Of a DNA stretch of 64,000 bases, positions 1,364 to 58,700 are shown in pieces. The first letter of the stretch is position 1; each line of letters opens with the position of its first letter. The notes under the pieces are model-generated. The model was not told where the DNA came from. It was given only the letters and a program-made list of their open reading frames with translations, and did not search any database. The DNA is from Convolutriloba macropyga. Taxonomy: Eukaryota. The translations under genes were made by a program, and so were the position numbers. The DNA lies in contig NC_134470.1 of NCBI RefSeq assembly GCF_964194025.1, positions 79,732,001-79,796,000 of the forward strand. The letters are read 5' to 3'.

Positions 1364-2547
1364 ATAGCTGCGAAGCTGTAAGCTGAGCGAAGCTATATTG
1401 CGGTGCTCTTGGTTTTTTTACAATTCAAAGAATTTGAATTGTATTGGGGCGCTGTCTTTTTTTAAAGATCTGTTCACACATTGATTTTTGAAGTCAAATT
1501 GGAGTGCGAAAATGGTGTTTGAACAAAAATTCGGTTTCTCGGTAGTGGTTTTTTGTTCACATGCGGCAATTTCACTCTGATTTTTACTGTTTTTTCGATT
1601 TTTTGGATCGGATTTCTAAATGGTTTTCGCTCATTCTAGCTCATTCTCATTCTAGGCCTAGTTTTTTGTTTGAATTAAATTTTACTTTCTCGCTACTGGT
1701 TTTTTTGTTCACATGCGGCATTTTGACATTGATTTTCAGTTTTTTTCTTATTGTTTTTATCTGATTTTTTTAAAATGGTTTTCTCAATTCACTCATAATC
1801 CATTCCAGGTCTAGTTTTTCTGTGTAGTCAATGAAAATTCTTTGAATTGTTCGTCAGGACTTGTCCTGCTATGTTTTTTGTTTTTGGATTAAATTTTCAT
1901 TTCTCGCTAGTGGTTTTTTTTGTTCACATGCGGCATTTTGACATTAATATTTTGTTTTTTTTTATCTGATTTTTTAAAAATTGTTTTCTCAATCCACTCA
2001 TAGTCCATTCTAGGTCTAGTTTTTCTGTTTAGTCAATGAAAAATCTTTGAATTGTTCGTCAGGACTTGTCCTGCTATGTTTTTTTGTTTCGTCGTCTGAC
2101 GCTCTTTTTCGTTTTACATTTGTTCACACAGCAAAGCTGAAAAGGTCAAATTTTCTGATTGACTTCTTCCTCTCACTAACGGCGTTTGCGCGCGTGACGT
2201 CATTTCTCAATCTCTCGAGAGAAAGTATTTAAGGCATTTGCGTGATTAGATTTTGATCATACGTGACTTACCTCGCTCAATAAAATGATTTTTGCACTTC
2301 AAAACTTTAAGTTTAAATTGAATTAATTTAAGGTCAAAGGAACTCATATATGCAGTGAAGGTTCCTAATAAAAGGTGTGTGCGGAATGAATTTTAACAAG
2401 CTTTATTAATTTATCGCTGAAGGTTTTTACCTAGATTTTTGAGCGGCGTCGATTTTTTTCAATTTAGATCTGTATCTGTTTCTATCTTTATTATACGGCA
2501 CGCAAGTCTATTCTTTCGCAGCTATTCCGGCAATCTGCCGGCTATGT
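1364..2547 (+). mobile_element. Helentron-like non-autonomous element (HINE-1 relative) with a nested HINE-4 at 1420-1873 and a duplicated HINE-4 3' end to 2078
   Basis: Subterminal inverted repeat ATAGCTGCGAA (1364) / TTCGCAGCTAT (~2515). 3' hairpin CCGGCA-ATC-TGCCGG followed by CTATGT. No TSD. Confidence 0.65.
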
Positions 2548-4263: not shown

Positions 4264-4792
4264 AATAGCCGCCCTCATCTTCTCAGCCGGCTAATATAGC
4301 GCTCCTATTTTTTTTTTACTTCGTCGAACTTTTTTTCGCTTTACCATTTTGCCGCTTTTTCGACATTTTGCGTGAAATCTTTTTGACTTCTCTAGGCTAG
4401 TTTCTCTCTTCTCTCATTCTGCTAAAAGTGAATTTGAACATCAGTTGCTCAGCAAAGCAATTCAAAATGAACAGAGTCAGTATAAAAAATTGAAGTCAGA
4501 ATTAGAAACGGAATAAACCCATAAAGCCCAATTTTAGATGCCCGCTATTTTAACGTCGTTCCTATAAGTCTTAGTTACCTCTCTCTAATGCTTATTGGTA
4601 TTGATAGTAGCCCCTGTAGCCTCTCTCTAAGAAACAGAAGTATATTCAACTACGAAATGTCATCAAAATAAATCGGACTTAAAAAATGCTTTTGTACAAA
4701 AATCTTTTTTTTTTTCAATATCTATTCTTTCAATCCCAATCATGCTTATTGGAATCAACGGTGGCTATTTTCCGGCAATCTGCCGGGTATGT
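4264..4792 (+). mobile_element. Divergent HINE-1-like element
   Basis: 5' AATAGCCGC; 3' GTGGCTATT followed by the CCGGCAATCTGCCGG hairpin. Confidence 0.5.
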
Positions 4793-23600: not shown

Positions 23601-26600
23601 CTTCTCAAATTTTGTAGCACTGGTTTTGATCCTCAGTTATGTTCGCTAGATTTAGTGATTTCTAGAAACTGCGATAATGATTACAAAGATTTGCAATTTT
23701 TTTGCATTTTTTGTTTACTCAACATATGCGTTTTCCGTAAGCTAGTTTTAATGATTTTTTGTTACCGATAAAAAATTTCTCCGAGTAAACTATTGTGAAT
23801 AAAGAAATCACGTGCATGCTTTTATTTTAAAATTTTACGTTTGCGGCTCACAAATTTGTAAAGAGTTATTTTGTATAAATTAATCAACTAAAAGGGAAAG
23901 TATACTATTAGATCACTTCTAATTACCTTTACTAGTGCCTTTCTGAAGGAAGTTTCCGTGTTACTATTAAAAAATGTTTCTAATTGCGTTTTGATGTTAG
24001 ATCTAGCTGCCAGTTATCTAAAGAGACTACATCAGAAAATTGTGGTAAACAATTGCTGAATTTGGTCAATTTTATAGAACAATTTGATCATTTGACTTCG
24101 AGTTCTCTCTCAGCCAGTAAAGAAGTGAAGTGAATATTCTGAGTCTGTTAAAAAAATTTTATGTTGTGTTAGAATGATGGACTATTTTTACAGTCATTCC
24201 CAGATAGCCGTGTGCTTAATTTTTGGCGCCTCAGTTTTTTATCCGTTTCCCGAAAAAATGAAAAAATTTGACTTTTTTCAGTGTTGTGATTAAATTTATT
24301 TTGCTTTAGTGTTGAAATTTTTAACAGTTTTATAGCATAAGGAAAAGTTTACCGCAGTGTTATTTTAATAAAGGATTTAGTTAGTTCCTCGATCTAAAGA
24401 ATTTATATTACGTTTATCCACACAAGAAGTAGATATGAGATAGGAAGCGAACTTTGACCCGAGTCTTGATGTACACCGGATTCTATGCTGGAAATGCTAT
24501 CTGTTGTTTAAACAAATTCTATGCGAATTTTTTTGCGCCCAGAGTTTCCTCAACAGTTTTATCTGTCGTTTAACGAGAGACTTTCAAGGGGGTGATTTGT
24601 CAGTGGCATTTTTGTAAAGTTTTCCAACCAAACAAAGTTGCGTCTTAAGTGCTCTAAAACCCAACCGCAAGTTTTAGCAATTAAATTTAATGTGACATGG
24701 GTAATTTCGATAATATTTTTTCAGTTAATTCTTTGATTGTTTGTAAACAAAACTGGCCAATTCTTGTATAAATTCCTTTATCTCTTTCGTTTTGAAGTGA
24801 AAGAATTTTTGTGATTTTGAAGAAATTTATGTGGATAGATTATTTCTTAATGCAGTTAACCAGAGAGGTGCTCAGAACGTACATTTTCTCAGAATAGCAA
24901 TAATTGAGGTCAATAGTGACCCTATTGTTAATTAGCTGCCTGGTTTATTAAATCAAGAAGGAAATTGTTCTTTTTTCAGAGGTTTATAGCAGAACAGAGT
25001 TGTTGCTTCAAGTCATATTTGAATTGAAATAAATTTTTGTTCTATTCCTTTTATTTTGAAGTGCATTTTTTAAACACTATTGTGTCTCATTGTGATGGAA
25101 ACTAAAAGAAATTGTTGGCTGGTTTCTTAGCTTGTTTCAATTTTTTCTTGACGGAACGTACGGAAATTTATCTTGGCGTGACTTTAAGTTTTCCTGAATT
25201 ATTTGATGTAATGTAAACTGAGATTTTTTGATTTGTCTTGACGTTACGTGTCTCTAACTGTTAGTTTCATGAACATTTCAAGAATTTCAGTGCTTTATTT
25301 TTTACTTCATTGTTTTCGAAGTTTTTAATTTCTCTTGAACGAAGTTTTACGACTCGAAGAGGAGTATTGGTTTTCTTAAGGTTTTTTACCTGAAGTACTA
25401 TTCATTCAGACGATGTTTTGACCTAACAGTGAAAGTGAGTAAAATTGCCGTGTGAACTAATTTTTTCTGAGCGAGAGAAGTTTTTTGATCATGCGCCGCG
25501 TTTAGTGAATGACTTTTTGACTTTGAAAAGTAGTTTTTGACTGAATGGCACATATAGATAACCGTTTTTAACCGTTTTTTCGTCTAAGCGGCCCAATTTT
25601 TTTGCTTGTGATTTGGTTTTTGTGGAAATAATTTTTATTCGATGCTATATTGAAATTTCAACCTCGGAAATTGATACCACAGTGTTTTGCAGAGCCTGAA
25701 GATGCGTTTCAAGTTCAAAATTGGCACATAATTCTTGATTTTTTAGTTATTTTTTGGCTTTTTTTCTATTAATTTCTTCATTTTTGGATCTTTTAACCTT
25801 CTTTTTGTCAAAAATCTGTTAATACGGCAACTTCCTTTTGATAATTCATAGACTCAACGCCTCTTTCTACCTCGATGTAATTTTGTTTTATAAAATTGTT
25901 CTTATGAGAATCCGGTTTTGGTAGATTTTTTTCTGTTTTTCAGTTTTTTGTTTGTATTTTGGTTTTAATGACTAGAAATAGTCTGTTTGTGCAACGTGAT
26001 GGACTTTAATTTTGTTTAAATAAAAGTTCAATAATTTTTTGGCGTTAAGTTTTTGAAAAATAGTTAAAACTTTTTCACAAATGCAGTCTTAAAAGTTTTT
26101 TTGACCATTTTTTTGCAAAATGTTCCGATGTTTCGTATTTTCTCTTTTTTCCATTTTTGAGTTCTCTGCAAGAGGCTAGATCTTCGTATCGGATGGCTCG
26201 TTATGTTTTCTCTGTCTCAAATGCTTAATAATGAAATGTGTTCGTTTTTCTTGATTTTTTTAAATGTGATTTTTAACTTTCAAAAATCAAGATTGTCATC
26301 ACGGTGTTCCTTAAATTGTGTCCTTATTTCCCACATTCTAGTTAATATCATTCTAGCTTTGGCTGGCACCTGCATTTATTTTCGGTATATTGATTTTGTC
26401 AGTTGTTAAAAAATCGAATGATTTCAGCTTTTTCTTAGATTTTCGTCATTTCTCTGGTTTGCAATTAATTTCATTCAACATAAGGCAGTACTGAGAGTCT
26501 GCTAGCAAGACTTTTCCAAAACATCCACTTATTAATGGTTACTGCAACTTTTTTCCGGCCTTGAATTTAATTAAACGATTATTTGCCTTTGAATATTCCT

Positions 26601-29600
26601 CTGCTGCTTATGTCTTTTCTATGATCAATTTAATTTTTGAATTAGTATGAAACCATGTTGTCTAGCGTATGTATAAGGAAGAAGTATATTTTTTTCTAAT
26701 AATTGCAGTGATTAGAATTGTAATTGTAGTGGTTTTCTGATTCTTAACTTTGAGAATTCTTTTTTGAAAAGATTTAACTTAGTTTCTAAGATTATTATCT
26801 GCCGTTTGCTTTCGCGATCTTTGAGATTAGAATCATGAATTAATTATTAGAGGACAATTGATAGCCCTCTCAGCTTTTTCAGCCTATCAGTATTTTGACC
26901 ATGTTAATTGTTTTGGACTTTTTTAACGTTACCAAACGTTTTCAATAATATAAAAATTTGCTGCAATTTGTTTCTCTTGGTGACAGTGGCTTAAGTCACC
27001 AAATTTTAGATCAGACCTAGGGAGGTAATGAGTTAATGGTTTAATACAAATGGTAATTGCTTCTGCTGCATTTACGGTTTTGTTTGTGAAGTTCTGACGC
27101 TTCGAGTCGCTTCCGGAATTCTTCCGGCTATATTTTTACAATTCAAAGAATTTGAATTGTATCGGGGCGCTGTCTTTTTATCTGTTCATACATTTTCATT
27201 CATGATTTTTGAAGTCAAATTGGAGTATTTATTTTGGTCACGCAGAAACAGGAAATGGAGCTGAAAAGCGAGTGGTTTTGCGGCGTAAAACTTTTTCGCT
27301 CTAATTTTGAAGTAGTGAGAAAACGGTGTTTCAATTGTTTTTTGTTCACATGAGGCAATTTCACTTTGATGTTTACTGTTTTTTCCTATTTTTTTAAATC
27401 TGATTTTTTCCCGAAATGTCTTTCCCAATTCACTCATAATCCGTTCTAGGTCTAGATTTTTGTTAAGTCAATGAAAATTCTTTGAATTGTACGTCAGGAC
27501 TTGTCCTGCTATGTTTATTGAAATTGTTTGCTTGACATTTTTGCACTTTTCTTCTAGAACATTCTTTGACTTCTCAAGTGACCTTTTCACGCTTTTGTTC
27601 TTTAGTTTTGAGTGATCTCTATTGTTCTCACTCCGAAGTAAAGCTTGTTCCTAAAATAAAAACGATTGCAGCATAGCAACAAGCAGGGGCTGATAGCCGA
27701 GTCGGCAGTGCTTCTGTGGAGGGATCGGGAGGTACATGGTTTGTATCCCGGCGTAGTCAACTGTTTTTGCACCCATAAAGAAAAATTGATCTAGGCTACA
27801 GCCCTTCAATTAAATTGCCTCGCCTGTTGTTCAAGAGCAATTCTTCCGACATTAGTTGCTTTATATTTCCTTTTACATTAGTTGCTTTATCTTTTTTTGC
27901 AAAGTTCTTCTTGGCTGCTAAATTAATTTTAATTGAATTCCTAATTAAAAAATATGTTTTTCAGATCTTTCCTACAAGTTTTCTGATAATATACTAGAGG
28001 AAAAGTTGTGATTCCACTTAAGTTGAACAACAGACTCGTAATTTTACATACCGTTATGTCTTGGAACTTTTGGAACTTTTCAGGCCTGAAGAGTTGTAAG
28101 TTTGTATCAATGGGGTTCCTTCGACTCATTTGAGGAGATTGCTGCCCAACTATTCCTCTTTCCTTTTGGTTATTCACTGTTTCGAAGACAGGATTTTCAA
28201 TGTACGCATTGTTGGGCCTGGAAACCTTGAACAGAATTCTGCATAAAATTATAAGCTCGTTTTTACTAATCAAGTTCTTTAAATAACTAAATTAATATTT
28301 AAATTTTACATAATTATAGATGGTTAACTGTACATTACCTCTACTATTTGCATTTTATTCTTAGATGTAATAGCAGAATTTAAAATGTTGTTTTTTTTAA
28401 AAAAATATTGTTCTATGCATGTATTGGGGTACTAATGTAGAAGAGGCAAAAATTTTGTACAAAGATTTGTTGCTTAGGAGTTCATCAGGTAATGTTGAAA
28501 CTCAAATTTCGCGAAATTGACCAAAGTTAACGGCAATTAACCTAAATTGAATTATTTGAAGCCGTAGTCAACTTTATTTGTCATTAGAACTGAATGCCCA
28601 CCGGACCGAAAGATGAAAATTTAATTTTAAAGTGAAGATTTGAGTTACCTTTTGTGTATCTTTTACTCTTGTCAGTCGAGTATATTCGTGAGCTATAATT
28701 CGACAGAATACAACTGTTATGAAACGACGTCGGTCAACCTCTGGTCCGTAGAACATAGGGAGTACTGGGTTTAGTGGATCCATATTAATTGTCTGGATTC
28801 CGTCAATTTCAAGAATTTGGTCTCCGGGCTCCAGCGGGTAGGCGCTTGCGACAGCCAGAGCTTTTCCAAACGAAGAGTTATTACGGATTTGAGGAACCTC
28901 GTCAATGCTGAAGCATAAAGGACTAAATTAATAGGGTGGGTGTCTTTTTTGGAATGGTGGGGGGGGGGGGGGGGGGTTAAGCAGGTGGAGCTACTGTGAA
29001 AATGAATCACTGCTGGATTCGAGCCAGCATCTCTTACTTGCAACCCTAAAGTGTTAACCATGACACCCACTGGTCTTAAGCTCTCGAACTTGGGCATCTC
29101 ATATGACCCATGCTTATGTTCTTCTTGTTCCTCAAGGCTTCTTCTCTAACCAAGTATACGTTGAACAAGTAGAGCTTCTTTTAAAGCTATGTCAAGCTTA
29201 TCTTTTGCACAATTTACATTAGCTTGTTCTCTCTCAGCCTTGTACGTGATCAGCCTGAAGAAAGTGAAGTCGTCAATCTGTTCATTAAAGTATTTGTTGC
29301 TGACGTCGTTAAACATAGCTTGGATAATGTAGAGGCTAAGATTCCGGTTGTTACGTACAAGTATTTGGTATCTCCATTCGGCAGTCTGAGCTCTTTGACC
29401 ATTGACAAGAAGTGCTCAATGGAAACCTGGCAATGTTCCACGGTGTAACTGCTTCCCATTCGCTCCTGGTATAACTCCTTTCTGTTTTCCACACTTTCCT
29501 GTTCTGGCACACTGGAGTTGCTCTCAAGCGGAAGCATCTCAACCTCTCTGAGGAATGTCAAGTGAACCTCGTTTGAGTTCTGCTTGAGTAGCTTCAGAGA

Positions 29601-32600
29601 GTCCTCCTTGGTCAGATGGCTGATTGATTGCCCATTTACACCTACTATCTGGTCCATAGGCTGGATCATTCCACATTTGTCCGCTGGTGATCCCGGAACG
29701 ACATCTTTGATGAAAAGCCGCTCGTCTTTGAAGTCTTTACTTCCCGGAAGGGAACGAATGTTGATTCCTGCAACAGAAATAATTTGTATCTTTTCCGTTT
29801 CTGCTCCCAGCTTAGTGGGTGCATATTATTTGCACCCCCAACAGAACGTGCTATATTTTTACATATTGATTTACTATGTAATGACACGTGTTCTGTAACG
29901 AGGGGGATTTGGGGGACACAGACAGAAAAGATCCCTATTTTGACATCTATCAAAACATAAATCAGAAGATATGGTACGTGCGTCTGGGGGTGGGGGCTGC
30001 AAATAATTTGCACCCACTAAGACAAAGCGCGCGGGGGGATCCGAATGGTCATGATGTGATATGTGAAATCTTATGATCGTTGTATGACAACAAGAAACTC
30101 GAGTGGAGTTGTTCAAATTTGCTCACCAAGAGATCCGAATATCTTGGTCAGAGTGACATGGTAGAAATGGTTGAGATTTTTGTCGAATCTGATTGGGAAA
30201 TCGAATCTCTGGTATCGCACTATTGTCAGCTCTGTCATCGTTCCACATGCCTTGAGAATTCCCACAACTTCATTTGAGTTGAGACCTCCGATTGGCATGT
30301 TGTTTATACATTGGACTATATCTCCTTTTTTCAGTCGCCCATCTTTCGAAGCCACACCATTTTCCACCAGTTTTTCAACCACCTAAATATCCGATAAGAA
30401 ATTTCGAATGGCATTTTGGCTTCTATGTTTACTACTTAGGCTATATGAGTTACTCTGGATCTATTGTCTCCCCCCGTGTTTTTTACGCCCCCCCCCCCCA
30501 GTTAAAAATTATATGTTGTTATGTAGCACGTTACTATGTAAAAAAAATAGCACGTGCGCCTGGGGGGGGGGGGGGTAAAATATGAGCCCGAGAAAAACAA
30601 TTAAATTAAGATAAACTAATTTTGATTTAAAAGATGGTAATTTTTAATTAAACAGATTAAAATAGTTAAGCTGCAGTTTAAATCGGACTAATCACTGGAA
30701 TACTTATTTACGAGATAGAAAATTTATTATTAAGTTTTTTATTTCGATTGGATTGTATGCTAGAGTATAACAAAACATGACATTCCTGCTTGCGGCTGAA
30801 ATAATGGTTAAATGACTCTGCTTGAAGTCAGCGAGAACTTCTGGCGTATATCGAGAAACGCGAAGTGTTTCGAGATATTAAGTCAGAATTTCGAAGTGAC
30901 TTATGCTGAGTCACTTAACCATGCTTAAAACAAGAAACGCGCACGGTTTAAAATGGCGAAAGTCAATCGAAGTCAACTTCTGGCTAAGTAGCAACATTTG
31001 GCTTTTTAACTTCTGGCACTGCAGACTTTCGGCATTTTAAAATGTGCACGTGAGTGTTTTAATTTTAGAGAAACAATTTTTTTCAGAAAGGCTAATTCGA
31101 GATGAGCTGTGCCTTTGTGAAAGCGAATGTTAAAAGACTCACTTGCACATTCTAAAAAGTCGAAAGACCGCAGCGCCAGAAGTTAAAATGCCAGAAGTTG
31201 CTACTTAGCCAGAAGTTGACTTCGATTGACTTTCGCCATTTTAAAAGGTGCGCGTTTCGTGTTTTAAGCATGGTTAAGTGACTCTGCAGAAGTCACTTCG
31301 AAATTCTGACTTAGGATCTCAAACTGCTTCGCGGTTCTCGATAAACGCCAGAAGTTCTCAGTGACTTCAAACAGAGTCTCGTAACCTATACTTCTGAGAT
31401 AAACATGATAATTACTTACCGTCAACCTTTGGAAACTGACGATAGCGAATCCGAAGCTGCCTCCCACCTCTCTCATTTCCAGGTTCACCACCAACTTCTG
31501 TTCTTGAAACCGCAGAACTGACTTGTGCAAATTGGAGTCGTTGAGCAGATTCTGCTCGAACACAAACTCCACCGAGTCATTCCGTCCCGACAACCGATTA
31601 GTTAGGGCCTGTTACAAAATTTAGCACAGTAAAGACCTTTTTGTTGGAAGGACCAGATAGCAAGCGTATGTAAATTGTGCAAAAGATAATCTGGACATAA
31701 CTTGACAAGAAACTGTACTTGTTCAACGTATACTTGGCTAGAGAAATGAAACCTTGAGGAACAAGAAAGAACGTGAGAACGGGTTATAAGAGATGCCCAA
31801 GTTCGAGAGCTTAAGACCAAATGGTGTTATGGTTAGCACACTATGCTTGCAAGTAAGAGATGCTGGTTCGAATCCAGTTCTGGTCCATTTTCACAGTAGT
31901 TGCGGCTACTTAGACGGCCCCCTAGCACTTTGAAGTATTATGTTTATGAATACTAAGTTCATGAAAAGAACAGTCTGAAATATGGGGAATAACAAGACAC
32001 AGGCTGCTGTGGCCTAATGCTGTTCCGCTGCGATTATGCAGAAAACACTATTATTTTTATGAAGTTTCGATCAGTAAATTTCATTGTCTTTTAATTGAGT
32101 GAAGTAATTATATTATGGGCAAAATTTTATTACCAGGAATTCTTGTTCAGTTTAAAGCAGAATTGACAGCGTTTTTAGAGTCAATTTTAATACTATTCGA
32201 TTTGTAAAGAATTTTTGATCAAACAACCGAAATTGTAACGTCTTCTAATCCTCATTAGCAACCGGAGTCTGTTTGAAACTACCTAATAGGGTGAGTGAAT
32301 TGATGAAGTTACGTAATAGGGCCGACCTTGAAGTGTTTTGGGGTTTGGATGACGTGGTTGTTGATTAGAATGAGTTCGTCTCCTGGTCTGATCAACATCC
32401 TCAAATGTGCCTCTTTTCTATCCACATTGGCCGCTTCTACATTGTCCACCACCAGTTTACACACCTGTAATGAAAACATTAAACAGAGGTCACTATTGGG
32501 ATCGGCGGATGTGATTAAAACACTCACGTGCACATTTTAAAATGCCGAAAGTCTGCAGTGCCAGAAGTTAAAATGCCAGAAGTCGCTACTCAGCCAGAAG

Positions 32601-35600
32601 TTGAATTTCGTCATTTTAAAAAGTGCGCGTTTCGTGTTTTAAGCATGGTTACGTGACTCTGCAGAAATCACTTCGAAATTCTGACTTAATATCTCGAACC
32701 GCTTTGCGGTTCTCGGTAAACGCCAGAAGTTCTCAGTGACTTCAAACACAGTCACGTAACCATTACTTAAAATGGAGGAGTAATAGTTCCTTTGCATGTG
32801 ATCACCGTTTTCCCTTTCGTTTTTTTAAAGTCATCAAACTAATCTAACCAATAAAGTAATTTTTCCTCGATTATTAAGTCCGTTGCCAAAAAAATCTGCA
32901 TCGTTGTCCTGATAAATTTTTTTATCTATTGCAGAAGGAAATTTAGAAACTTAAGATATGGTAAATTTCAAAAATGAAAAATAATGAGTTTGGTTCATAA
33001 CTGGAAATAGTTTATTCTCACTTGTTCATGCCTGGGGATTGATACTTCATTGGGGTCGTTGCTCAATTCCACCCCTCCTACGCTGAAGCCCCACGAAGAT
33101 CCAGGTCTAGCTGGAAAGTGAACCCTAAAGAATGGAGAGTTTATTTGGTTAGAATGGTTAGTTTATTTCTGCTAATAAATGTGAAATATGTAGTAGAATA
33201 GAACGAGAGGTATTAGCATTGGGTGTATTTGGTACAGGGAGTGCGCCAATCTATCAAATGAACAATTTTTTCACGAGTGTGTGCGGGAGAGAACAGAGTA
33301 TTTTTTGATAAATTTGATGGATCAGATATATAGCACTGAATATTTGTATGCTCTTATTTCACATTCACCATTTGAAAAATGCTTTTTAATAGCCGCACAG
33401 CGATAGCTGGGGCTATTATTGGCCTTCTCTTGGTTTTTTTACGACTCGAAGAGGAGTATTGGTTTTCTTAAGGTTTTTTTTTTACCGGAAGTACTATTCG
33501 TTCAGACGATGTTTTGACCTAAAAGCGAAAGCGAGTAAAATTGCAGTGTGAACTAATTTTTTCTGAGCGAGAGAAGTTTTTTTATCATGCGCCGCGTTTA
33601 GTGAATGACTTTTTGACTTTGAAAAGTAGTTTTTGACTGAATGGCACATATAGATAACCGTTTTTAGCCGTTTTTTCGTCTAAGTGGCCTAGTTTTTTTG
33701 CTTGTAATTTGGTTTTTTGTAGAAATAATTTTTAATCGATGCTATGTTGAAATGTAAACTCCGGAAATTGATAGCACAGTATTTTGCATAGCCTGAAATT
33801 GCGTTTCAAATGCGAAATTGGCACATATTTCTTGATTTTTTAGTTAATTTTTGGCTTTTTTTTCTATTAATTACTTCATTTTTGGATCTTTTAGCTGTTT
33901 TTTTGTCAAAAATCAGTTAATATGGAAACTTCCCTTTGATAATTCATATACTCAATGCCTCTTTCTACCTCGATGTAATTTTGTTTCATAAAATTGTACA
34001 TTTGCTAATCCGATTTTCGTAGTTTTTTTGCCAATTTTTTTCAGCTTTTTGTTTGTATTTTGCTTTTAATCACTAGAAATAGTATTTTGGGGAACATGAG
34101 GGACTTTAATTTTGTTTCAATAAAAATTCAATCATTTTTTGGTGTTAAGTTTTTGAAAAAACAGATAAATTTTTTTCACAAATGCAGTCTTAAATATTTT
34201 TTGACCACTTTTTTACAAAATGTTTCATTATTTCGTATGTCTGAATTCTTCTTTTCCTTGTTTTATTCTGTTCAGCAAGTTGGATTTTTGTCTCGAATGA
34301 CTCGTTGTCTTTTCTATGTCTCGAATGCTGATCAATGAAATGTGCTCGTTTTTCTTGATTTTTTTAAATTTGATTTTTAACTTTCAAAAATCAAGAATTG
34401 GTCTTTTTGTTACGGTGTTCTTAACATTGTGTCCATATTCTTCACATTCTCGTTTGTATCATTCTAGTTTTGTCCTGGCAGCTACTTTTGTATTCGTTAT
34501 ATTGATTTTTTCAGTTGTTAAAAAATTGAATGAATTCAGCTTTTTCTTAGATCTTGGTTTCTTCGGTTTGCAATTGATTTAATTCAAAATAAGGCAGTAC
34601 TGGGAGTTTGCTAGAAAGTCTTTTCCAACATTTCGACTTAATACTATTCATTGCAATTGTCTTCCGGGCTTGGTATTGTTTTTAGACGACTGTTTGTCTT
34701 CGAAAATTATTCTGTTGCTTTTGTTTTTCTATGATTAATTTAATTTTTGAATTAGTATGAAATCATGTTGTCTTGCATATATACAACAAGGAAGAATCAT
34801 GTATTATTTTTGTCTTAATTGCCGTGATTAGAAATCTAATTGTAGTAGTTCTCTGATTTTTAAGTTTGAGCACTCTTTTTTGAATAATTTTGACTTTCCT
34901 GTCTTTTTTGAAAAGTTTTTATCTGCCGTTTGCTTTCGCGATCTTTTTGAGATTAGAATCATTAATTATCTGAGGACAATTGATGGCCTGTCAGCTTTGT
35001 CAGGCTATCTGTTTTTTGACCATCCTAAAAATTTCAGACTTTTTTAACGTTACCAAACGTTTTCAATAATAAAATTTTGCTGCATTTCCTTTCTCTTGGT
35101 GACAGTGGTTTAAGTTTCACCAATTTTTAGATCAGACCCGTGGAGGTAATGAGTTAATGGTTTAATACAAAAGGTAATGGCTTCAGCTTTTTGTGAAATT
35201 TTGGTGCTTCGAGTCGCTTCCGGAATTCTTCCGGCTATGTTTTTTATTTCGTCGTCATGATTTTTGTTACGACCATATGACGTCACAGCCACTGTTTGTT
35301 CATTCGTTCATGCAATTTCAACTGAATTGCATGTGTGACGTCATTTTTCGCTCTTAGTGGAGCGAGTTTTTTTGTTCATGTGCGTGATTAAATTTTTGAT
35401 CACACTTGACTTGCCTCACTCTCAAAATGACTTCCTCACTTTGAAATTGACTTTTATTTACTTCAATTCAAAGAGATAAGGTCAAATGGGTGTATGTCGC
35501 TCTAAATGAAGACTCTTTGAGAGCATCTAATAGAGGCAGCAAAAACTTATACAGATTTTGATCAAAATATAACATATCGGCCTTCAATGAAAAGACGAAA

Positions 35601-37733
35601 TTTTTTTGGTCTGTCTTTTTTACTGTTTTTTTTAGACTGTCGATCTACGAATCTATTGCGGCTATTTTCTGGCAATCTGCCAGCTATGTTTCTACGTTTG
35701 TTTAAGCTACAAAATGAATTAATTGGTAACTAAAATTATAACTGAAATTTACGAGAGAATTTAAGAAATTAAAATGAATTCAGCCAAAACTTTTTTACTC
35801 CTTAAATATTACGATATAAATATATCAAGCTTTACAATCGGAAGCACCTGTAACCGAAGATGAATTTCATGGAATTTATGAACTTTTATTGATAAACATT
35901 GTTTTCGAACAACAAAGTTAACGAACCCTTCTCCTTTTTCTTACCTATTTTTTTAGACTGCCATTTTATAACTTTTGAACTTGCTTTATTTTCTCATAGA
36001 ATTCTCATGGCAACAGTTTCATTAACATGTTGTATTTTATGCACATAAGCGTAAACAATAATACGGTGAACTTCGGGCCTTAGTATGTCTTGGCAAAAAA
36101 ATGAAAAGGCTCAGCAAGGGTAGATTCTTTTTTTCAATAGCTCAGTGAAAGAATTTCTGTATCTCTTCGGAACGGCATTGATCGGGCACAATTGACTGGA
36201 CAAAATAGGCAGATTTCATGAAGTGCGTAAACGAGAAATAGAGGGTTGGAACAATTATGGATATGTAATATTCATTATTCATAATGAATATTAGTTAGCC
36301 ATGAGTCATCAATATTCTGAATTGTTACTGACGCAGTTTTATTTCGCCACAGTTTTTTTACATGAAGACTCCTGTTAAGAACGTTAGGCAAAAACCATTT
36401 AAAACAAAGACGGCTATTCAAAGCCCACTTTACGCTATAAGGTGCTCAATTGTCTCAAAGAATATATGTAGAATGTTCTATTTTTCAACTTTTAACAGTT
36501 GTTCACCCCTCGGTAATATCATAGGAAAGGATTTTGTCAAGTTTACAGCGGAAAGAGGCGAAGACTTTTTTTTAAAAAAAACTCGCTTGTTGTTGAGCTT
36601 GTCGAATGGATGTCGCAATTTATGGTAAAAAGCGCGATTATGCTTTCCACGAACTGTTTGAGGAAAGTAAAATATTGACAGTTTATGAGCTTTATTGTTT
36701 TGAACTGATCAAATTCAGTTTAAAATCATTGAGGCTAGAAACTCCATCTTCAATAACTTATATGCTAGGACGGAATCAGTTTTCGAAACAAGGAACTCAC
36801 AAATGGGCCTTCTAGCTACGCCAAAATGCAAAACCAGAAGACGTCTCTTGGGCTAAGAGGTACCAAGCTAATCAATGTCTTACTCAACCGTGATTTGATC
36901 CCTCCAGATGTTTGTTGCTTTGATTAGAATCGTTTTACAACACTTACCAGGAAACTCAAGTCTATTGTTCGAACTGAAAAGTTATCAGATCTAATTTTTT
37001 GAAGCTTGGTTAAATAGGTACTCTATATAAGGGCTGTTGCCTGTAGGAGGATCCCTCTGATGCAATCAATATTCACCATTTTTTAACTGTAATGTTCTTA
37101 TGTACGCGTCAGAAAAATTTTTTCGTGCTTTCTTTAAGTAGTTTAGAGGCCGTTGGGCGCAGGAAAAATCTAAAAAGTGTTGGAGTTTTTGTGGTGGGAT
37201 GGAACTAAACTGAAGTGCTGCAAAGTTAAAAGCCTTTTTTCTGTGTTCATTTAAGCTATTATGTTGAGTTGATTGATAGGGACACTTAAGTACTTTAAAG
37301 CGTCAAGTGGTATTTGAAGTACCGTCTTTCATTTTAAAAGGTTTTTCAGGTATTTTTCATTGGGTGAGGGAAATGTCGAAAGAAGTCCTTTTCGGTCTAA
37401 ATATTGACAGTCAACGTACCTGTAAAAGTTGTCGGGCAATGTTGAAGAAATCACTGTGCTAGTTTGCGATTTGAACAACTCTTTGTTCTCACAGTTGAAC
37501 TTGTAAATTTCCCGGAATACTGGATCTTTCAATAACACAGTGAGCTGTCTCAGCTGGTCACAGCCAGGGTGATTGCTGTCCGGGTAACTTGTTAAGAACT
37601 GGTGGAGAACAGCATGCGTGCTCCGTTCGATTTGGTCCAGCCCAATTGTCGCGTCACCCTGGTGGGGTTGCGGGGACCAGGGTGACCTGGTGGGCTCACG
37701 ATTGTAATAATTGTAATTTCCGTCGTTCAACAT
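14455..37733 (-). CDS. MPDZ: Multiple PDZ domain protein, MPDZ/PATJ (INADL) family; L27 + 7 PDZ, ~1448 aa, 14 coding exons
   Basis: Exons 37420-37733, 33022-33124, 32327-32464, 31420-31608, 30127-30382, 29359-29767, 28649-28907, 28052-28225, 22783-23496, 21663-22105, 20240-20826, 19049-19440, 18535-18676 and 14455-14681 join by GT-AG in one frame (4347 nt). L27-like DQLRQLTVLLKDPVFREI; PDZ loops SSWGFSV, GSFGFAI, GSLGINI, ESMGLKI, QLMGMGL, EPLGISIV. The last domain (REQAINIIRQCRSPLRFIVQS) resembles MPDZ PDZ7. MPDZ versus PATJ orthology is unresolved. Confidence 0.8.
15550..17330 (+). mobile_element. Highly decayed LINE (APE endonuclease + RT remnants)
   Basis: A-rich strand with a WVVACVYR (endonuclease-like) remnant and RPS/QGS-like remnants; many stops. 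Confidence 0.45.
18535..18676 (-). CDS. MPDZ: MPDZ-like exon 13
   Basis: GPKRFVEIVKGDDEPLGISIV...IREGSPAD. Confidence 0.85.
19049..19440 (-). CDS. MPDZ: MPDZ-like exon 12 (donor position uncertain)
   Basis: GDYLIAINGYEL; CAG|GTTGGA donor. Confidence 0.75.
20240..20826 (-). CDS. MPDZ: MPDZ-like exon 11
   Basis: GMLVRSISPDGLIGEDGRIQEG. Confidence 0.85.
21034..21391 (+). mobile_element. HINE-2 element with a tRNA-Gly-like core
   Basis: HINE-2 termini; internal TCAGACTGCCACCCTGGAGGCAAGTAGTTCGAATCCC followed by a T-run. Confidence 0.6.
21663..22105 (-). CDS. MPDZ: MPDZ-like exon 10
   Basis: LMNQLPNGQIKFGIRK; GTGAGT donor. Confidence 0.8.
22783..23496 (-). CDS. MPDZ: MPDZ-like exon 9
   Basis: ESMGLKIS...GGEAEKADILAPNDRIVQ. 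Confidence 0.85.
24200..25250 (-). mobile_element. Probable decayed LINE fragment
   Basis: A-rich minus strand with weak RT-like remnants; no intact ORF. Confidence 0.35.
25327..27863 (+). mobile_element. Composite: HINE-2 containing HINE-3 (25349-27132) and HINE-4 (27138-27513) in tandem
   Basis: Each module has its own subTIR pair and 3' hairpin+CTAT. HINE-3 is colinear with 33441-35239. Confidence 0.7.
28052..28225 (-). CDS. MPDZ: MPDZ-like exon 8 (linker)
   Basis: Open frame, GTATGT donor, phase 0-0. Confidence 0.6.
28649..28907 (-). CDS. MPDZ: MPDZ-like exon 7
   Basis: LEPGDQILEIDG. Confidence 0.75.
28991..29099 (-). mobile_element. tRNA-derived (Ala-TGC-like) SINE-type repeat
   Basis: Homologous to 31791-31900; A- and B-box remnants. 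Confidence 0.55.
29359..29767 (-). CDS. MPDZ: MPDZ-like exon 6
   Basis: LFIKDVVPGSPADKCGMIQPMDQIVGVNG. Confidence 0.85.
30127..30382 (-). CDS. MPDZ: MPDZ-like exon 5
   Basis: GVASKDGRLKKGDIVQCIN. Confidence 0.85.
30806..31386. mobile_element. Palindromic MITE with ~255-bp TIRs; solo arm at 32514-32761
   Basis: 30806-31063 is the diverged reverse complement of 31130-31386 and of 32514-32761. Confidence 0.8.
31420..31608 (-). CDS. MPDZ: MPDZ-like exon 4
   Basis: GGSFGFAIV; GTAAGT donor; phase 0-0. Confidence 0.8.
31791..31900 (+). mobile_element. tRNA-derived (Ala-TGC-like) SINE-type repeat / pseudo-tRNA
   Basis: 31815-31887 partly folds: D arm GTGT/GCAC, loop CTTGCAA, T arm GCTGG-TTCGAAT-CCAGT. 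The anticodon stem is mispaired. Confidence 0.55.
32327..32464 (-). CDS. MPDZ: MPDZ-like exon 3
   Basis: LIRPGDELILINNH; phase 0-0. Confidence 0.8.
33022..33124 (-). CDS. MPDZ: MPDZ-like exon 2 (PDZ1 start; not in the ORF track)
   Basis: VHFPARPGSSWGFSVGGVEL; phases fit both neighbours. Confidence 0.8.
33388..35689 (+). mobile_element. HINE-1 with a nested 1.8-kb HINE-3 (33441-35239)
   Basis: Outer subTIR AATAGCCGCA/TGCGGCTATT with hairpin CTGGCA-ATC-TGCCAG+CTATGT. Inner subTIR CGACTCGAAG/CTTCGAGTCG with hairpin CCGGAA-TTC-TTCCGG+CTATG. Confidence 0.75.
36400..37100 (+). mobile_element. LINE 3'-end fragment
   Basis: LFEESKILTVYELYCFELIKF is homologous to the 3' part of the minus-strand LINE near 62020-62080. 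Confidence 0.55.
37420..37733 (-). CDS. MPDZ: MPDZ-like exon 1 (L27)
   Basis: ATG at 37733; AG|GTACGT donor. Confidence 0.75.
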
Positions 37734-38289
37734 TGTGGTATTATATAACCCAGCTTTTAGAGTTAAAAAATGAAAGGTATACAATGTTCACAAATGTAAT
37801 GGAAATTTCTCACATTCGGTCTTTGGCTGTTTTCAATCAATAAAGTAATTTAAAAATATTAAATGTTGCTTCCCTATTGATTTACTTTTTAAGTAGTAAA
37901 AAAATAATTTCCGCAAAAGTGTAATGTAAATTTATATCGGATGGTCAGTGATTGGTAACTTGGTCATTTTACACAAGAAGTCGGAGTGGTCAACGAACGA
38001 TACTCTACGCTTGTATTTGCGTGTTTATTATTTAGCGTTTGGTTTCATTCAAAGGTATATTAAATATGCACACGAATAATCATGTTCCGTATCAAATGTT
38101 TGTTTCATTATTGTCTATAGAACAAATATACCATTATTCAATGCTGTACTGTAGTACTCATTTTTTGTCTGTTTGAAGCGTGTTTAATCTGCAACTAAAC
38201 GTGTGGTAGAGGTCTTTGTCCAATTATGATAGCAAAAACAATGCTGTTATCTTCAGCAGGAATTATTCCATGTAACTGAGCTATTTTAC

Positions 38290-44381: not shown

Positions 44382-45224
44382 ATGTCACAATCTAAGTTGA
44401 GTAGCAGCAATAAAACTAGCAACAACGAAAATACCACCATGGCAAGTGGAGTTAGAGGTCTAGACGGGGGTTCCATAACGTCTTCTAGCATCATTGTCGA
44501 GGAGTGGGAGGATCTTGGATCATCGACGTCGGGTTCCATTCGCCCACCTGGTACTCAAGGTGGAGGAACTGCTTCAACCTTGGGATCCGTGGATAGCGAA
44601 GTCATAAACTCAGTTTCAAGTCTGTCATCGACAGCTTCTGGAATTTCGTCGAGCAATGCCACTAACACTTCGCCTTATAACGACGAGTTGGAGCGTCTTC
44701 TGTTGGAAGCCCAACGAGAGGGAAGTTCGAGAGCAACGTCAATCAGAAGCAGCAGTGGGCCACATTCGCCCGTGTGGTCAGTTGGAGGCGGGACTGGATT
44801 TAGCAGTCCAGTATTGTTACAGAATTCAGCCAATCAGACTAATTTGGAAACCGCGTTGGCAAATTATTCAAGTCGGCCAGAATGTACTCCTTTGAAACCT
44901 CACGAATTAGCAGAAAAATTCAGGCATCCAAATGGTCATAACTCAATTGTATCGGGAAATGTATTGATGGTATCAGAAATCGATCCAGAGCAGAACAACC
45001 GATTAGCCAATAGCAATTACCCTCTATTCATATCAGACTCTGAAAGTGAACCTGAACCCGAACCCAATTTGGGGTGGCTGACTAGTTTGTCATCCTCCTT
45101 TAGAACAATATTCACTCCTCCGTACTCATATTTCCTTATTCCAACGCACGTAATTATGTTTGGACTGGGAGCCCTGTGTGCTTATGTATACTTTGCGAAG
45201 AGGATGCTCAAAAAATGGAGATAG
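44382..45224 (+). CDS. BNIP3: BNIP3/NIX-like mitophagy receptor (280 aa, single coding exon)
   Basis: LIR-like EEWEDL; ELERLLLEAQRE (cf. MEKILLDAQHE); YSSRPECTP..KFRHP (cf. WSSRPENIPPKEF..RHP); C-terminal TM THVIMFGLG followed by a basic tail. Confidence 0.88.
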   Translation: MSQSKLSSSNKTSNNENTTMASGVRGLDGGSITSSSIIVEEWEDLGSSTSGSIRPPGTQGGGTASTLGSVDSEVINSVSSLSSTASGISSSNATNTSPYNDELERLLLEAQREGSSRATSIRSSSGPHSPVWSVGGGTGFSSPVLLQNSANQTNLETALANYSSRPECTPLKPHELAEKFRHPNGHNSIVSGNVLMVSEIDPEQNNRLANSNYPLFISDSESEPEPEPNLGWLTSLSSSFRTIFTPPYSYFLIPTHVIMFGLGALCAYVYFAKRMLKKWR

Positions 45225-50236: not shown

Positions 50237-51115
50237 AATAGCCGCACAGCGATAGCTGGGGCTATTATTGGCCTTCTCTTGTTTTTTTTACAATTCAAAG
50301 AATTTGAATTGTATTAGGGCGCTGTCTTTTTTTTTTCTAAGATCTGTTCACACATTTTCATGATTTTTGAAGTCAAATTGGAGTAGTTATTTTGGTCACG
50401 CCGAAACATGAAGTGGAGCGAAAAAGCGAGTGGTTTTGCGGCGTGAAACTTTTTTGCTCTAAATTTAAAGTAGAGTGAGAAAACGGTGATTGAACAAAAA
50501 TTCGCTTTCTCGCTAGTGGTTTCTTGTTCACATGCGGCAATTTCACTTTGATTTTTACAGTTTTTTCGATTTTTTGGATCGGATTTTTTTTCTAAATGGT
50601 TTTCCCAATCCATTCATAGTCAGTTCTTGGTCTAGTTTTCTGTTTATTCAATGAAAATTCTTTGAATTGTACGTCAGGACTTGTCCTGCTTTGTTTTTTA
50701 TTTCGTCGTCATGATTTTTGTTAAAACCATATGACGTCACAGTCACTTTTTGTTCATTCGTTCATGCAATTTCAACTGAATTGCATGTGTGACGTCATTT
50801 TTCGCTCTTAGTGGTGCGAGCTTTTTGTTCATGCGCGTGATTAAATTTTTTGTCACACGTGACTAACATCACTCTCAAAAACGACATCCTCGCACTGAAA
50901 TTGACATTTACTTTTATTCAAAGAGATAAGCTCACGCGAGTGTATATCACTCTTATTGAAGGCTATTTAAGAGCAGCTAATAGAAGAAACAATTAGTTAT
51001 ACAGATCCCTAATCAAAATTTCAATTTCTTTTAATTAAGTCTGTCTTGTTAAATCTTTTAGACGGCCGATCTACAAATCTATTGCGGCTATTTTCTGGCA
51101 ATCTGCCAGCTATGT
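50237..51115 (+). mobile_element. HINE-1 with nested HINE-4 (50290-50693)
   Basis: Same termini as 33388-35689. Inner subTIR ACAATTCAAAGAAT/ATTCTTTGAATTGT with hairpin CAGGAC-TT-GTCCTG. Confidence 0.75.
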
Positions 51116-55700: not shown

Positions 55701-58700
55701 AAAGTTGGCATTGGTTAAAGTGGTATTGGGTAAGTCGGCAGGTTGGGTATAATGGCATTGGGTAAAATGGAGTTGGACCAATTGCCCTGACACCGCGTTC
55801 TAAGTGCCTTTTTTAATTGTCTTTATTCTGCCTTCATTGCGGAAATTGTAAGGCACACAAGCGGGAATGACGTTTGGTGGTGACAACGAAAACTTCGCTT
55901 TTGCATAGAATACGTTAAAATTGTGACGTTCGAGAAACTTTAAAATAATTTTGCTGGACTTCACGAGAGCTTGCGTTTATAATTTTCAAATGCGAAGTGG
56001 CCTACTTTGATCGTATAAATTGAACTGCGTTAAAATGCAGAAATAGAGAAACATTGGCCGAATTAGATTATTGGGACGCTTGGGTATAGAGGTCGTGAAT
56101 TGCAAATATAAAAGAGCAGAAACAAAATATTTTTTCTTGATTATAGTGCAAAGTTTTTTAATTTTTGGCCATCGAAAAAATGTTACTATGATGTTTATAA
56201 TGGGTTCCCATTAAATAATCCTGATTGGATTGAAACGGAATCGAAAGCAAGGCAGATAGAAAAACCGAGAACAGCGCGAAGGAATAAAAAATTTGCGAAA
56301 AATAATAGGAGACGTATTGTGATTAACAGAAGGGATAGCAGTTTGATTTTATTGGAATACAATCAATTCAATATTGATGTTTAAATTCTATCACCGAATA
56401 TTAGTTTTGAATCCTCGCTTAGATCTTTTACAAGTTAGGCAACGAAGCTCGTTGTTCACCGTGGATAATCTCCAGTAGCCAGAGCACTCTACATTATATT
56501 GCATCAAACAAAAGAAGCATTGACGCAGTCAAATCTAGCACCAGTAATAGATCTTGATTTGAAAGATTCAATCTTTGTTATTTTCTCATAAAACATTACA
56601 ATTACATAACAGTGTTGTTTCATTATCCACTAATTCCCTCTCTTTTTGCATTACGTCAACTCGTGACAAAAACATTTTGGCTGATCACGCATAGCTCTGA
56701 TAGAAACTCTTTCAAGTGGACTATCAACAGTTGACAAGCTGTTTATCAGCCCGCAGTTATAGTCGCAAGATTTTTTGTATTAAAGCTTATTTTTTTATTT
56801 TTGGTCGTTTTAGGGTGAGTTAATGATTTTGTTTAAAAATACCCATAGTGCTACCAAGTTGAGAGTGGATTTGATGATGTTATTGACTGTAGACAGTGGT
56901 AAATTCGCATGTATAATATTAACAATAAATTGGATAAATCTATGTTATTTAAATAATAGCAGGTGAACGTTAAATTGAACATCTAAGAATTGGGGCAACC
57001 GACAGTTAGAGATAACCAAAAGATAATAAATATCACTAAATTATTTTTCACAATTATTAGAGCTAGTTTTTTTGTTCATTCGCTCGGCTTTTATCAGTTT
57101 TTGTTATTGTCATTGAGCTCACTTGACATTGACTTTTACGCTGTGTTTGCCTTTTCTCTTTAGCACAAAAATTTGTTAGCGCAACAACTAGATAGTTACC
57201 AATTAAGAAAGAAGATCTACTTGACAATTAAATTTTTTACAAACTACTCAATAAAAGAAATCAATTGAACTCCAACCACAAGAGAGTTTTTAATAGCCGC
57301 ACAGCGATAGCTGGGGCTATTATTGGCCTTCTCTTGGTTTTTTTACAATTCAAAGAATTTGAATTGTATTGGGGCGCTGTCTTTTTTTTAAGATCTGTTC
57401 ACACATTTTCATGATTTTGGAAGTCAAATTGGAGTAGTGATTTTGGTCACGTCGAAACAGGAAGTGGAGCGAAAAAGCGAGTGGTTTTGCGGCGTGAAAT
57501 TTTTTCGCTGTAATTTTAAAGCAGAGTGAGAATACGGTGTTTGAACAAAAATTCGCTTTATCGGTAGTGGTTATTTTGTTCACATGCGGCAATTTCGCTT
57601 TGATTTTTTCTGTTTTTTCAATTTTTTGGATCGGGTTTTTTTTCTAAATGGTTTTCCTAATCCATTCATAGTCTTTTCTTAGTCTAGTTTTCTGTGTAGT
57701 CAATGAAAATTCTTTGAATTGTACGTCAGGACTTGTCCTGCTATGTTTTTTTTTATTTCGTCATGATTTTTGTTACTACCATATGACGTCACAGCCACTT
57801 TTTGTTCATTCGTTCATGCAATTTCAACTGAATTGCATGTGTGACGTCATTTTTCGCTCTTAGTGGAGCGAGTTTTGTTCATGAGCGTGATTAAATTTTT
57901 GGTCACACTTGACTTACCTCACTCTCAAAAATGACTTCCTCAATTTGAAATTGACTTTTATTTACCTTAATTCAAAGAGATAAGGTCAAATGGGTGTGTG
58001 TCACTCTAAATGAAGGTTATTTGAGATCAGCTAATAGAGGCAGCAATAACTTATAAAGATTTTAAATGAAAATATAACAGATCAGTCTTCTATGAAAAGA
58101 CAATTTTTTTGGTCTGTCTTTTTTACTGTTTCTTTAGACGGCCGATCTACGAATCTATTGCGGCTATTTTCTGGCAATCTGCCAGATGTGTTTGAAAAGT
58201 TTCAGAAACAGTTGATTGAGAGTAACTCAAGCAGTCGAAAAAATGGAATGTTATCAATGAAGTTAGAAACTTCAAAAGAACAGCAACTAAAGTCAACTGC
58301 TTAAAAAATAGCTTTGGTAAACTAGTAACAAATAAACAAGAGATTGCTATTCACTTCAGCTACGTTTTTTATCAATTAGGAGCTTTTAAGTTTAATAATA
58401 ATGATAGAAAATAGCAGGTTGAAAACCACCACTCGGTTCCTCTCAATTTTTATTTTAGATTTGTAACCAGCCATGGATGCCTAAGAGTGCTTCTTGACCT
58501 AAACAAAGATAAACCACTGGGTCCTTCTAACTTGCCTGCTTGGGCACTTAAATTAGGAGCACCAGAACTACCTAAACCTTTGTGTTTTCTGTTTAATGAA
58601 TATTTGAAAGCCAAACAATTTCCTTCGCAAATAAAATTTACTCACATCACGCCTCTATTTAAAGAGGTTGATATTGACAATCCATTAAACTATAGACCAG

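Follow-up and report, generated by a model that had tools for sequence, protein, structure and literature searches.

The window analysed here is a stretch of 64,000 nucleotides (contig NC_134470.1, positions 79732001-79796000, forward strand) from a genome of 1.18 Gb. It contains short elements of four families, HINE-1 to HINE-4, several of which lie inside one another. In what follows, an element is said to begin with its 'head' (33-50 nt), the T-run next to the head is called the 'pad', and 'tail' denotes the 3' hairpin together with the terminus. The elements and their parts, in positions of the window, are the following.

33388-35688, plus strand: HINE-1a composite with HINE-3 in its pad
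33388..33433, plus strand: HINE-1a 5' head, with a subterminal inverted repeat within a hairpin and then a spacer of 12-14 nt
33388-33397 and 35657-35666: the HINE-1a subterminal inverted repeat, 10 bp
33434..33440, plus strand: left half of the HINE-1a pad, 7 T
33441..35239, plus strand: HINE-3 of the alpha subfamily, 1799 nt, in the HINE-1a pad
33442-33451 and 35207-35216: subterminal repeats of this HINE-3, whose 3' hairpin is at 35220-35234
33474-33483: own pad of this HINE-3, empty
35240..35245, plus strand: right half of the HINE-1a pad, 6 T
35246..35688, plus strand: HINE-1a body, including its 3' subterminal repeat at 35657-35666, its hairpin at 35669-35683 and its terminus
50237..51114, plus strand: HINE-1a with HINE-4 (50290-50693) in its pad
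57292..58188, plus strand: HINE-1a with HINE-4 (57345-57745) in its pad; the host 3' terminus is decayed and the end approximate
1364..2547, plus strand: HINE-1c with an internally duplicated HINE-4 (1420 to about 2079); end approximate
4264..4791, plus strand: HINE-1b whose pad, the T-run 4308-4317, is empty; the fifth HINE-1-family copy in the window
about 25327-27865, plus strand: HINE-2 enclosing HINE-3 (25349-27132) and then HINE-4 (27138-27513) in tandem

The initial annotation had located the cargo correctly (HINE-3 at 33441; HINE-4 at 50290, at 57345 and, in a divergent relative, at 1420), and the T-run that it placed about 53 nt from the 5' end of HINE-1 is present, at 46-52 nt. The tandem of HINE-3 and HINE-4 that it described within HINE-2 (25349-27513) also exists, but does not occupy a pad: HINE-3 lies inside the HINE-2 head, about 22 nt into it, and compared with the copy at 53245 this HINE-2 lacks about 30 nt. 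The junction between the HINE-3 tail and the HINE-4 head in this HINE-2 is one of only 35 genome-wide.

With respect to its surroundings, the HINE-1a/HINE-3 nest is flanked by exons of a multi-PDZ gene, which is encoded on the minus strand (window 18755-37787). A BNIP3-family frame is present on the plus strand at 44382-45224, and the window also holds locally duplicated tracts of 1.3-1.9 kb, two copies of a 15-bp minisatellite element, and long inverted-repeat elements (6475-13625; 53843-56526; 19603-19924; 30798-31394).

Several lines of evidence support the view that HINE-1 to HINE-4 are non-autonomous Helentrons (HINEs), and all the Helentron/HINE features that could be decided are present. 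Firstly, all four families possess the subterminal inverted repeats that characterize Helentrons (10-14 bp), the 5' copy lying only a few nt from its end of the element and the 3' copy about 22-33 nt from the other, which is nearer than the 38-60 nt given for mite HINEs in the relevant passages of PMC4067079. Secondly, the 3' hairpins of HINE-1 and HINE-4 (tails with z about -2.6) and the 5' hairpins of HINE-1, HINE-2 and HINE-4 fold better than most shuffled sequences (z -2.1 to -4.3). The folds of the HINE-3 tail (z -1.4, stem present) and of the head at 1364 (z -1.5) are weak relative to shuffles, and neither the HINE-3 head (z 0.8) nor the decayed HINE-2 tail of the window (z -0.5) folds better than shuffles. 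Thirdly, comparison of empty and filled pads shows that the elements insert between two T. The median length is 8 T for empty pads, and filled pads have about 6-7 T on the left and 7 T on the right, being about 5-6 T longer. The proposed lack of a target-site duplication stands for non-T bases, of which no duplication was observed in the inspected flanks; the extra T of filled pads match the variable terminal T listed among HINE features in Thomas et al. 2014 (PMC4067079), but may also stem from a pure-T duplication. Tail-to-head joints, which a circular intermediate of rolling-circle transposition would produce, were found in contigs, where they look the same as joints between tandem copies.

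The identity of the elements is further supported by autonomous partners with matching ends that encode RepHel and an endonuclease. A search for Helitron_like_N yielded 90 matches, and about 30 loci were examined. Autonomous Rep/helicase elements with the same subterminal repeats, which the initial annotation had suggested looking for, were found for HINE-1, HINE-3 and HINE-4, with end identities of 95-97% between F11a and HINE-3 (also for the copy at 33441..35239), 84-89% between F11d and HINE-4, and 80-85% between F9 and HINE-1b; the partner of HINE-2 is tentatively F10 or F11b. F9 has HINE-1b-type ends; it was at first taken for a HINE-4 Helentron that had inserted into a pad, but this was rejected, because its pad is empty in 3/3 copies with a 5' end. 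F11a (44.7 kb) has HINE-3 ends and sits in a HINE-3 pad that itself lies inside a HINE-1c pad, whereas F11d, with HINE-4 ends, is free-standing; the reading frames of both are interrupted. In the decayed element F16, for which no head was found, a HINE-3 tail is followed by HINE-4 and HINE-1a bodies. The elements F1, F2, F5 and F8 were rejected as HINE partners because they are canonical Helitrons.

Pfam hits to Rep, PIF1 and DUF6570 are present in F9a, F11a and F11d, and hits to OTU in F9a, F11c and F11d. The endonuclease gives only weak Pfam hits to Exo_endo_phos_2, below cut-off (E 0.004-0.009, in F9a and F11c), and a homologue is found in 6/7 elements tested, so that the C-terminal APE-type endonuclease, OTU and DUF6570 expected of autonomous Helentrons are all represented. 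A serine follows the Arg-Gly of Rep motif 2 in F9, F10, F15, F11a, F11b and F11c, the motif not being matched in F11d or F16, and the canonical Helitrons F1-F8 have leucine or isoleucine at this position. In a quick tree of 10 rows, for which sequences with at least 250 aligned residues were used (F12a, F12c, F1a, F2a, F5 and F14 fell below this) and whose outgroup F13 is a long branch, the RepHels of F11a, F16, F11d and F11c group together with an SH-aLRT of 100, apart from F9, F10, F15 and F11b. Hence, the transposases of HINE-3 and HINE-4 belong to one clade, separate from that of HINE-1, the assignment of F11c to HINE-4 being tentative. A Pfam domain unique to this clade was not found.

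The F9 loci are on contigs C16 (about 33.93-33.96 Mb), C6 (about 50.29-50.32 Mb) and C4 (about 49.03-49.06 Mb), F11a is on C10 (about 15.63-15.68 Mb) and F11d on C11 (about 52.30-52.33 Mb). These autonomous Helentrons measure 24-45 kb, the bulk of which is a minisatellite between the head and the ORF, with 94-bp units in F9 and F10 (12-24 kb) and 104-bp units in F11a, F11b, F11d and F16 (19-28 kb). Two other groups were encountered. F12 (C10 43.2-43.7 Mb, C4 about 51.2 Mb, C2 about 35.75 Mb, and C807) comprises clustered, very divergent loci with uninterrupted OTU-Rep-helicase frames of about 2500 aa, in which neither HINE-1 to HINE-4 ends nor an endonuclease match was detected. F1-F8 are canonical Helitrons of several young families, which have small introns and a common 3' terminal motif (C5 about 77.5 Mb, C2 about 34.24 Mb, and others). 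Contigs of sequencing run X6, from another organism (B), contain, at low depth, both the joints expected of empty pads and junctions between HINE-1 and HINE-3.

The exact head patterns occur genome-wide 2679 times for HINE-1a (head core), 4169 times for HINE-3 and 8034 times for HINE-4. It had been proposed that the HINE-1 site is occupied in all clear copies. However, counting empty and filled sites showed that 21 of 43 HINE-1a pads on contig C1 are empty (20 scored automatically, one by eye), 14 contain HINE-4 and 8 contain HINE-3, and the copy at 4264-4791 in the window is empty as well. It should be noted that the query of our initial DNA search contained the start of HINE-3, which biased the 30/30 filled sites that it returned, and these were left uncounted. 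An always-filled hotspot specific to HINE-1 is thus rejected.

The picture changes when the location of the cargo is considered. HINE-3 was found directly behind another head in 30/30 copies of a first sample that includes some local duplicates, in 64/66 of an enlarged sample (57 automatically, 7 by eye), and in 29/30 of the best matches across chromosomes, the query included, the remaining copy being free. The corresponding figures for HINE-4 are 29/30, 88/99 (82 automatically, 6 by eye; 6 elsewhere) and, across chromosomes, 23/30 (21 automatically, 2 by eye; 4 free), the sample of 99 being partly enriched by heads within loci fetched for other families. Only 3/43 HINE-1a copies (7%), on the other hand, lie behind another head, and the contrasts of HINE-3 and of HINE-4 with HINE-1a are both significant (Fisher p < 1e-20 each). 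Local duplicates among the sampled loci mean that these counts slightly overstate independence. The window contains 14 heads and 725 runs of at least 5 T, so pads make up 1.9% of such runs, and the 77-97% of HINE-3 and HINE-4 copies that reside in pads are far above this chance level. The initial proposal that a hotspot within related elements is targeted again and again is therefore strongly supported, with two modifications. The hosts comprise six HINE-1 subfamilies, HINE-4, HINE-3 and occasionally HINE-2: the hotspot is a feature of the head of every family, not of HINE-1 alone, and the specificity resides in HINE-3 and HINE-4. Nor is the specificity absolute, as F11d and the free HINE-4 (4/30) and HINE-3 (1/30) copies demonstrate. 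A minor second site is located directly after a resident tail (5/99 and 3/30 HINE-4, 2-3/43 HINE-1a) and generates tandem arrays. At two loci, L371 and L372, HINE-3 occupies an earlier run of 4-5 T within a HINE-3 head, which fits a rule of the first T-run behind the head.

Enrichment of this kind could in principle arise if HINE-3 and HINE-4 entered any T-run and selection removed all but the nested copies. Insertion within another element is nearly neutral, which would favour such an outcome. However, this neutrality applies equally to other T-runs of the residents, which are hardly used. Every HINE-4 has T-runs in front of it, in its pad and behind it. Genome-wide, there are 1724 junctions of HINE-3 in HINE-4 pads, as compared with 35 cases in which a HINE-3 tail immediately precedes a HINE-4 head and 4 in which HINE-3 immediately follows a HINE-4 tail; these patterns were of unequal stringency, so that the ratios are approximate. 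Moreover, the HINE-1a body contains 8 further runs of at least 5 T, and HINE-1a, whose size is similar, persists outside other elements in the majority of the 43 cases. These controls within the elements already largely refute the explanation by selection, and we consider it extremely improbable.

The same junctions reveal which pad is used in a stack. HINE-3 occurs in HINE-1a/c pads at 1015 junctions genome-wide, but only the T-run behind the innermost head is used: a HINE-1 pad no longer attracts HINE-3 once a HINE-4 head follows, even though the sequence upstream of this pad is unchanged. Stacks of three and four heads occur in varied orders, and 129 chains of stacked heads were collected, of which 41 were too short to judge. 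Among the 88 informative chains, 55 close exactly in reverse order and 11 possess the outer tail but have an inner part that is additional or was missed, so that the outer tail was found in 66/88. The 22/88 chains in which it went undetected would be compatible with end-bypass chimeras similar to those proposed for FoHeli, in which a host head plus cargo ends at the first tail. However, in 10 of the 11 open chains with a cargo tail a HINE body resumes at once, and the head and body subfamilies of hosts agree. End bypass, like the nesting of cut-and-paste MITEs, is refuted as the main route, and there is very little chance that either accounts for the nests; MITEs are rejected because the inverted repeats are subterminal, not true terminal repeats, and the partners encode RepHel and no DDE transposase.

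The initial annotation further proposed that the nests spread as composite cassettes. A strong form of this idea is that a few ancient nestings were amplified, that HINE-3 and HINE-4 mostly hitchhike on HINE-1 ends, and that the enrichment reflects founder effects. In separate trees for host and cargo, as suggested at the time, cargo copies do not group according to host, nor do hosts group according to cargo. The HINE-4 tree (66 copies, with 50 rows labelled by HINE-1a/b/c hosts) requires 22 host changes, against 23.8 +/- 1.9 after shuffling, and the nearest neighbour resides in the same host family in 12/50 cases (expected 16.2). By contrast, when head family was mapped on the tree of HINE-1 bodies as a control, 8 changes were needed against 35.8 shuffled. 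The trees of HINE-1a, HINE-1b and HINE-1c show no grouping by cargo state either (for HINE-1a, 16 changes against 15.0 shuffled). Many combinations of host and cargo subfamily exist, since short and long HINE-4 are each found in HINE-1a, HINE-1b and HINE-1c, and HINE-3 of 1.05 kb and of 1.4 kb are each found in short and long HINE-4. These combinations, the varied orders of the three- and four-head stacks and the free autonomous F11d, whose HINE-4 ends can evidently stand alone, all speak against cassettes. The raw distances of host and cargo do correlate (rho 0.72 for HINE-1a and 0.63 for HINE-1b), but these Mantel correlations were set aside as an age effect, because they disappear when the divergence of each copy is removed by double-centring (0.05, 0.09 and -0.08, with one mis-parsed HINE-1a row dropped).

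On the other hand, one composite did spread: the 3' end of F9 consists of a decayed HINE-4 tail and a HINE-1b body in 5/6 copies examined (e.g. L168:1650-2100), and also in F17, and is a fossil of a nested HINE-4/HINE-1b composite. In addition, HINE-1b shows a weak linkage (4 shared host/cargo splits against 1.4 expected, p 0.04), HINE-4 elements filled with HINE-3 cluster slightly (11 against 13.0, p 0.065), and the ages of host and cargo correlate (rho 0.33, p 0.048, n 37). Because the trees of host and cargo are uncoupled, repeated independent insertion outweighs the spread of cassettes; that most composites arose from separate insertions is supported by these trees, whose resolution is limited as they are star-like with few supported branches. 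Cassette spread occurs, but looks like a minor route, and we regard founder amplification as an improbable explanation of the enrichment.

Altogether, the observations show a preference that is restricted to one clade, crosses family borders and is specific in position. In our opinion, insertion of HINE-3 and HINE-4 is quite probably site-specific: the target is the first T-run that follows the 5' head of a Helentron-type element already in place, which the RepHel-endonuclease presumably reaches by docking on the head and then nicks. The targeting is well supported, and docking is what we infer from it. The transposase would carry the incoming element, which is probably circular, as has been published for other Helitrons, and could bind the resident head or a RepHel already present on it. 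The C-terminal APE-type endonuclease would then nick the T-run located 35-50 nt from the 5' end, while the T-run at the 5' edge of the head itself may be covered by the bound protein, which would explain why stacks grow inward. The elements might thereby gain a safe site whose supply is renewed by every insertion, because every cargo brings a fresh pad. The hairpin alone is not the signal, since the HINE-3 head is used as a target yet does not form a significant hairpin.

Plain docking does not explain one further observation. Considering HINE-4 and HINE-1a/c hosts only, HINE-3 of the gamma subfamily was found 27 times in HINE-4 and never in HINE-1a/c, and the alpha subfamily once and 13 times, respectively (p 8e-10). 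In each case, moreover, the dinucleotide that precedes the T-run in the pad of the cargo itself resembles the one in its favoured host. This split may indicate a variant with the same site specificity that is guided by sequence, in which the head, spacer and T-run of the incoming element pair with or mimic the target and subfamilies prefer pads like their own. It may, however, also reflect different periods of activity. Against guidance by sequence, HINE-4 uses HINE-1a/c and HINE-1b pads about equally despite their differing spacers, alpha elements also enter HINE-4 pads (6/30) and HINE-3 pads (5/30) in the cross-chromosome sample, and the unchanged HINE-1 pad remains unused once HINE-4 follows. 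We therefore think that such guidance is rather unlikely and retain docking on the head as the preferred explanation. Going one step further, we are somewhat inclined to believe that one Helentron transposase clade acts as a site-specific parasite of other Helentrons, reading a head structure that is divergent in sequence but common across families and integrating even 45-kb elements at the first T-run, with each insertion supplying the next target.

To our knowledge, the target choice of Helentrons and the roles of the endonuclease and the subterminal repeats have so far not been subjected to tests. The present genome offers a natural contrast between the generalist HINE-1 and the specialists HINE-3 and HINE-4, whose transposases are in separate clades, and with thousands of insertions at a defined target of 50 nt, target selection can be tested by domain swaps. 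This suggests a landing pad for the integration of large cargo and, if our interpretation is true, one that is self-renewing and addressable by a eukaryotic rolling-circle integrase. The nesting also accounts for the erroneous annotation of such repeats as one composite family.

The use of one mobile element as an address by another is known from bacteria. Tn5053-type res hunters use a protein-bound site of another element in this way. Similarly, IS4321 and IS5075 (IS1111 family) target the terminal repeats of Tn21, i.e. the end of another element (Partridge and Hall 2003, as cited in PMC11187229). These bacterial systems differ from the present one in their chemistry (RNA-guided DEDD or DDE), and no homology is implied. 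Among eukaryotic rolling-circle elements, Paramecium Helitrons have been proposed to target telomere repeats. The closest relatives are the Helentron/HINE/DINE-1 elements (HLE2), which, in the sections of Thomas et al. 2014 (PMC4067079), Li et al. 2024 (HELIANO, PMC11417382) and the study on oyster Cg_HINE (PMC7492417) that describe them, share with the elements studied here subterminal inverted repeats, a 3' hairpin, a T-rich target, variable terminal T, and autonomous partners with the Rep motif 2 serine, endonuclease, OTU, DUF6570 and internal tandem repeats. As described in those sections, HLE2 elements have a loose preference for TT or T-rich sequence and cluster near relatives, whereas here most copies of a family occupy a fixed site behind resident heads. 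Neither a fixed pad used across families nor a cross-family, clade-restricted specificity was reported in the papers searched, but self-insertion near 5' ends had already been proposed for Fusarium Helitron2. The HLE2 element concerned, FoHeli of Fusarium oxysporum, carries stacked short 5' termini, which were attributed to insertion of the element into its own 5' region (Chellapan et al. 2016, PMC5148889; PMC13342296). According to the portions of these two reports that deal with the stacks, several heads share one tail, the positions vary (31-85 bp), the elements involved belong to the same family and one true nest is reported. The elements described here, on the other hand, are not multi-head, single-tail chimeras, but form fully closed nests at one defined T-run, with targets in different families, in thousands of cases and by members of one RepHel clade.
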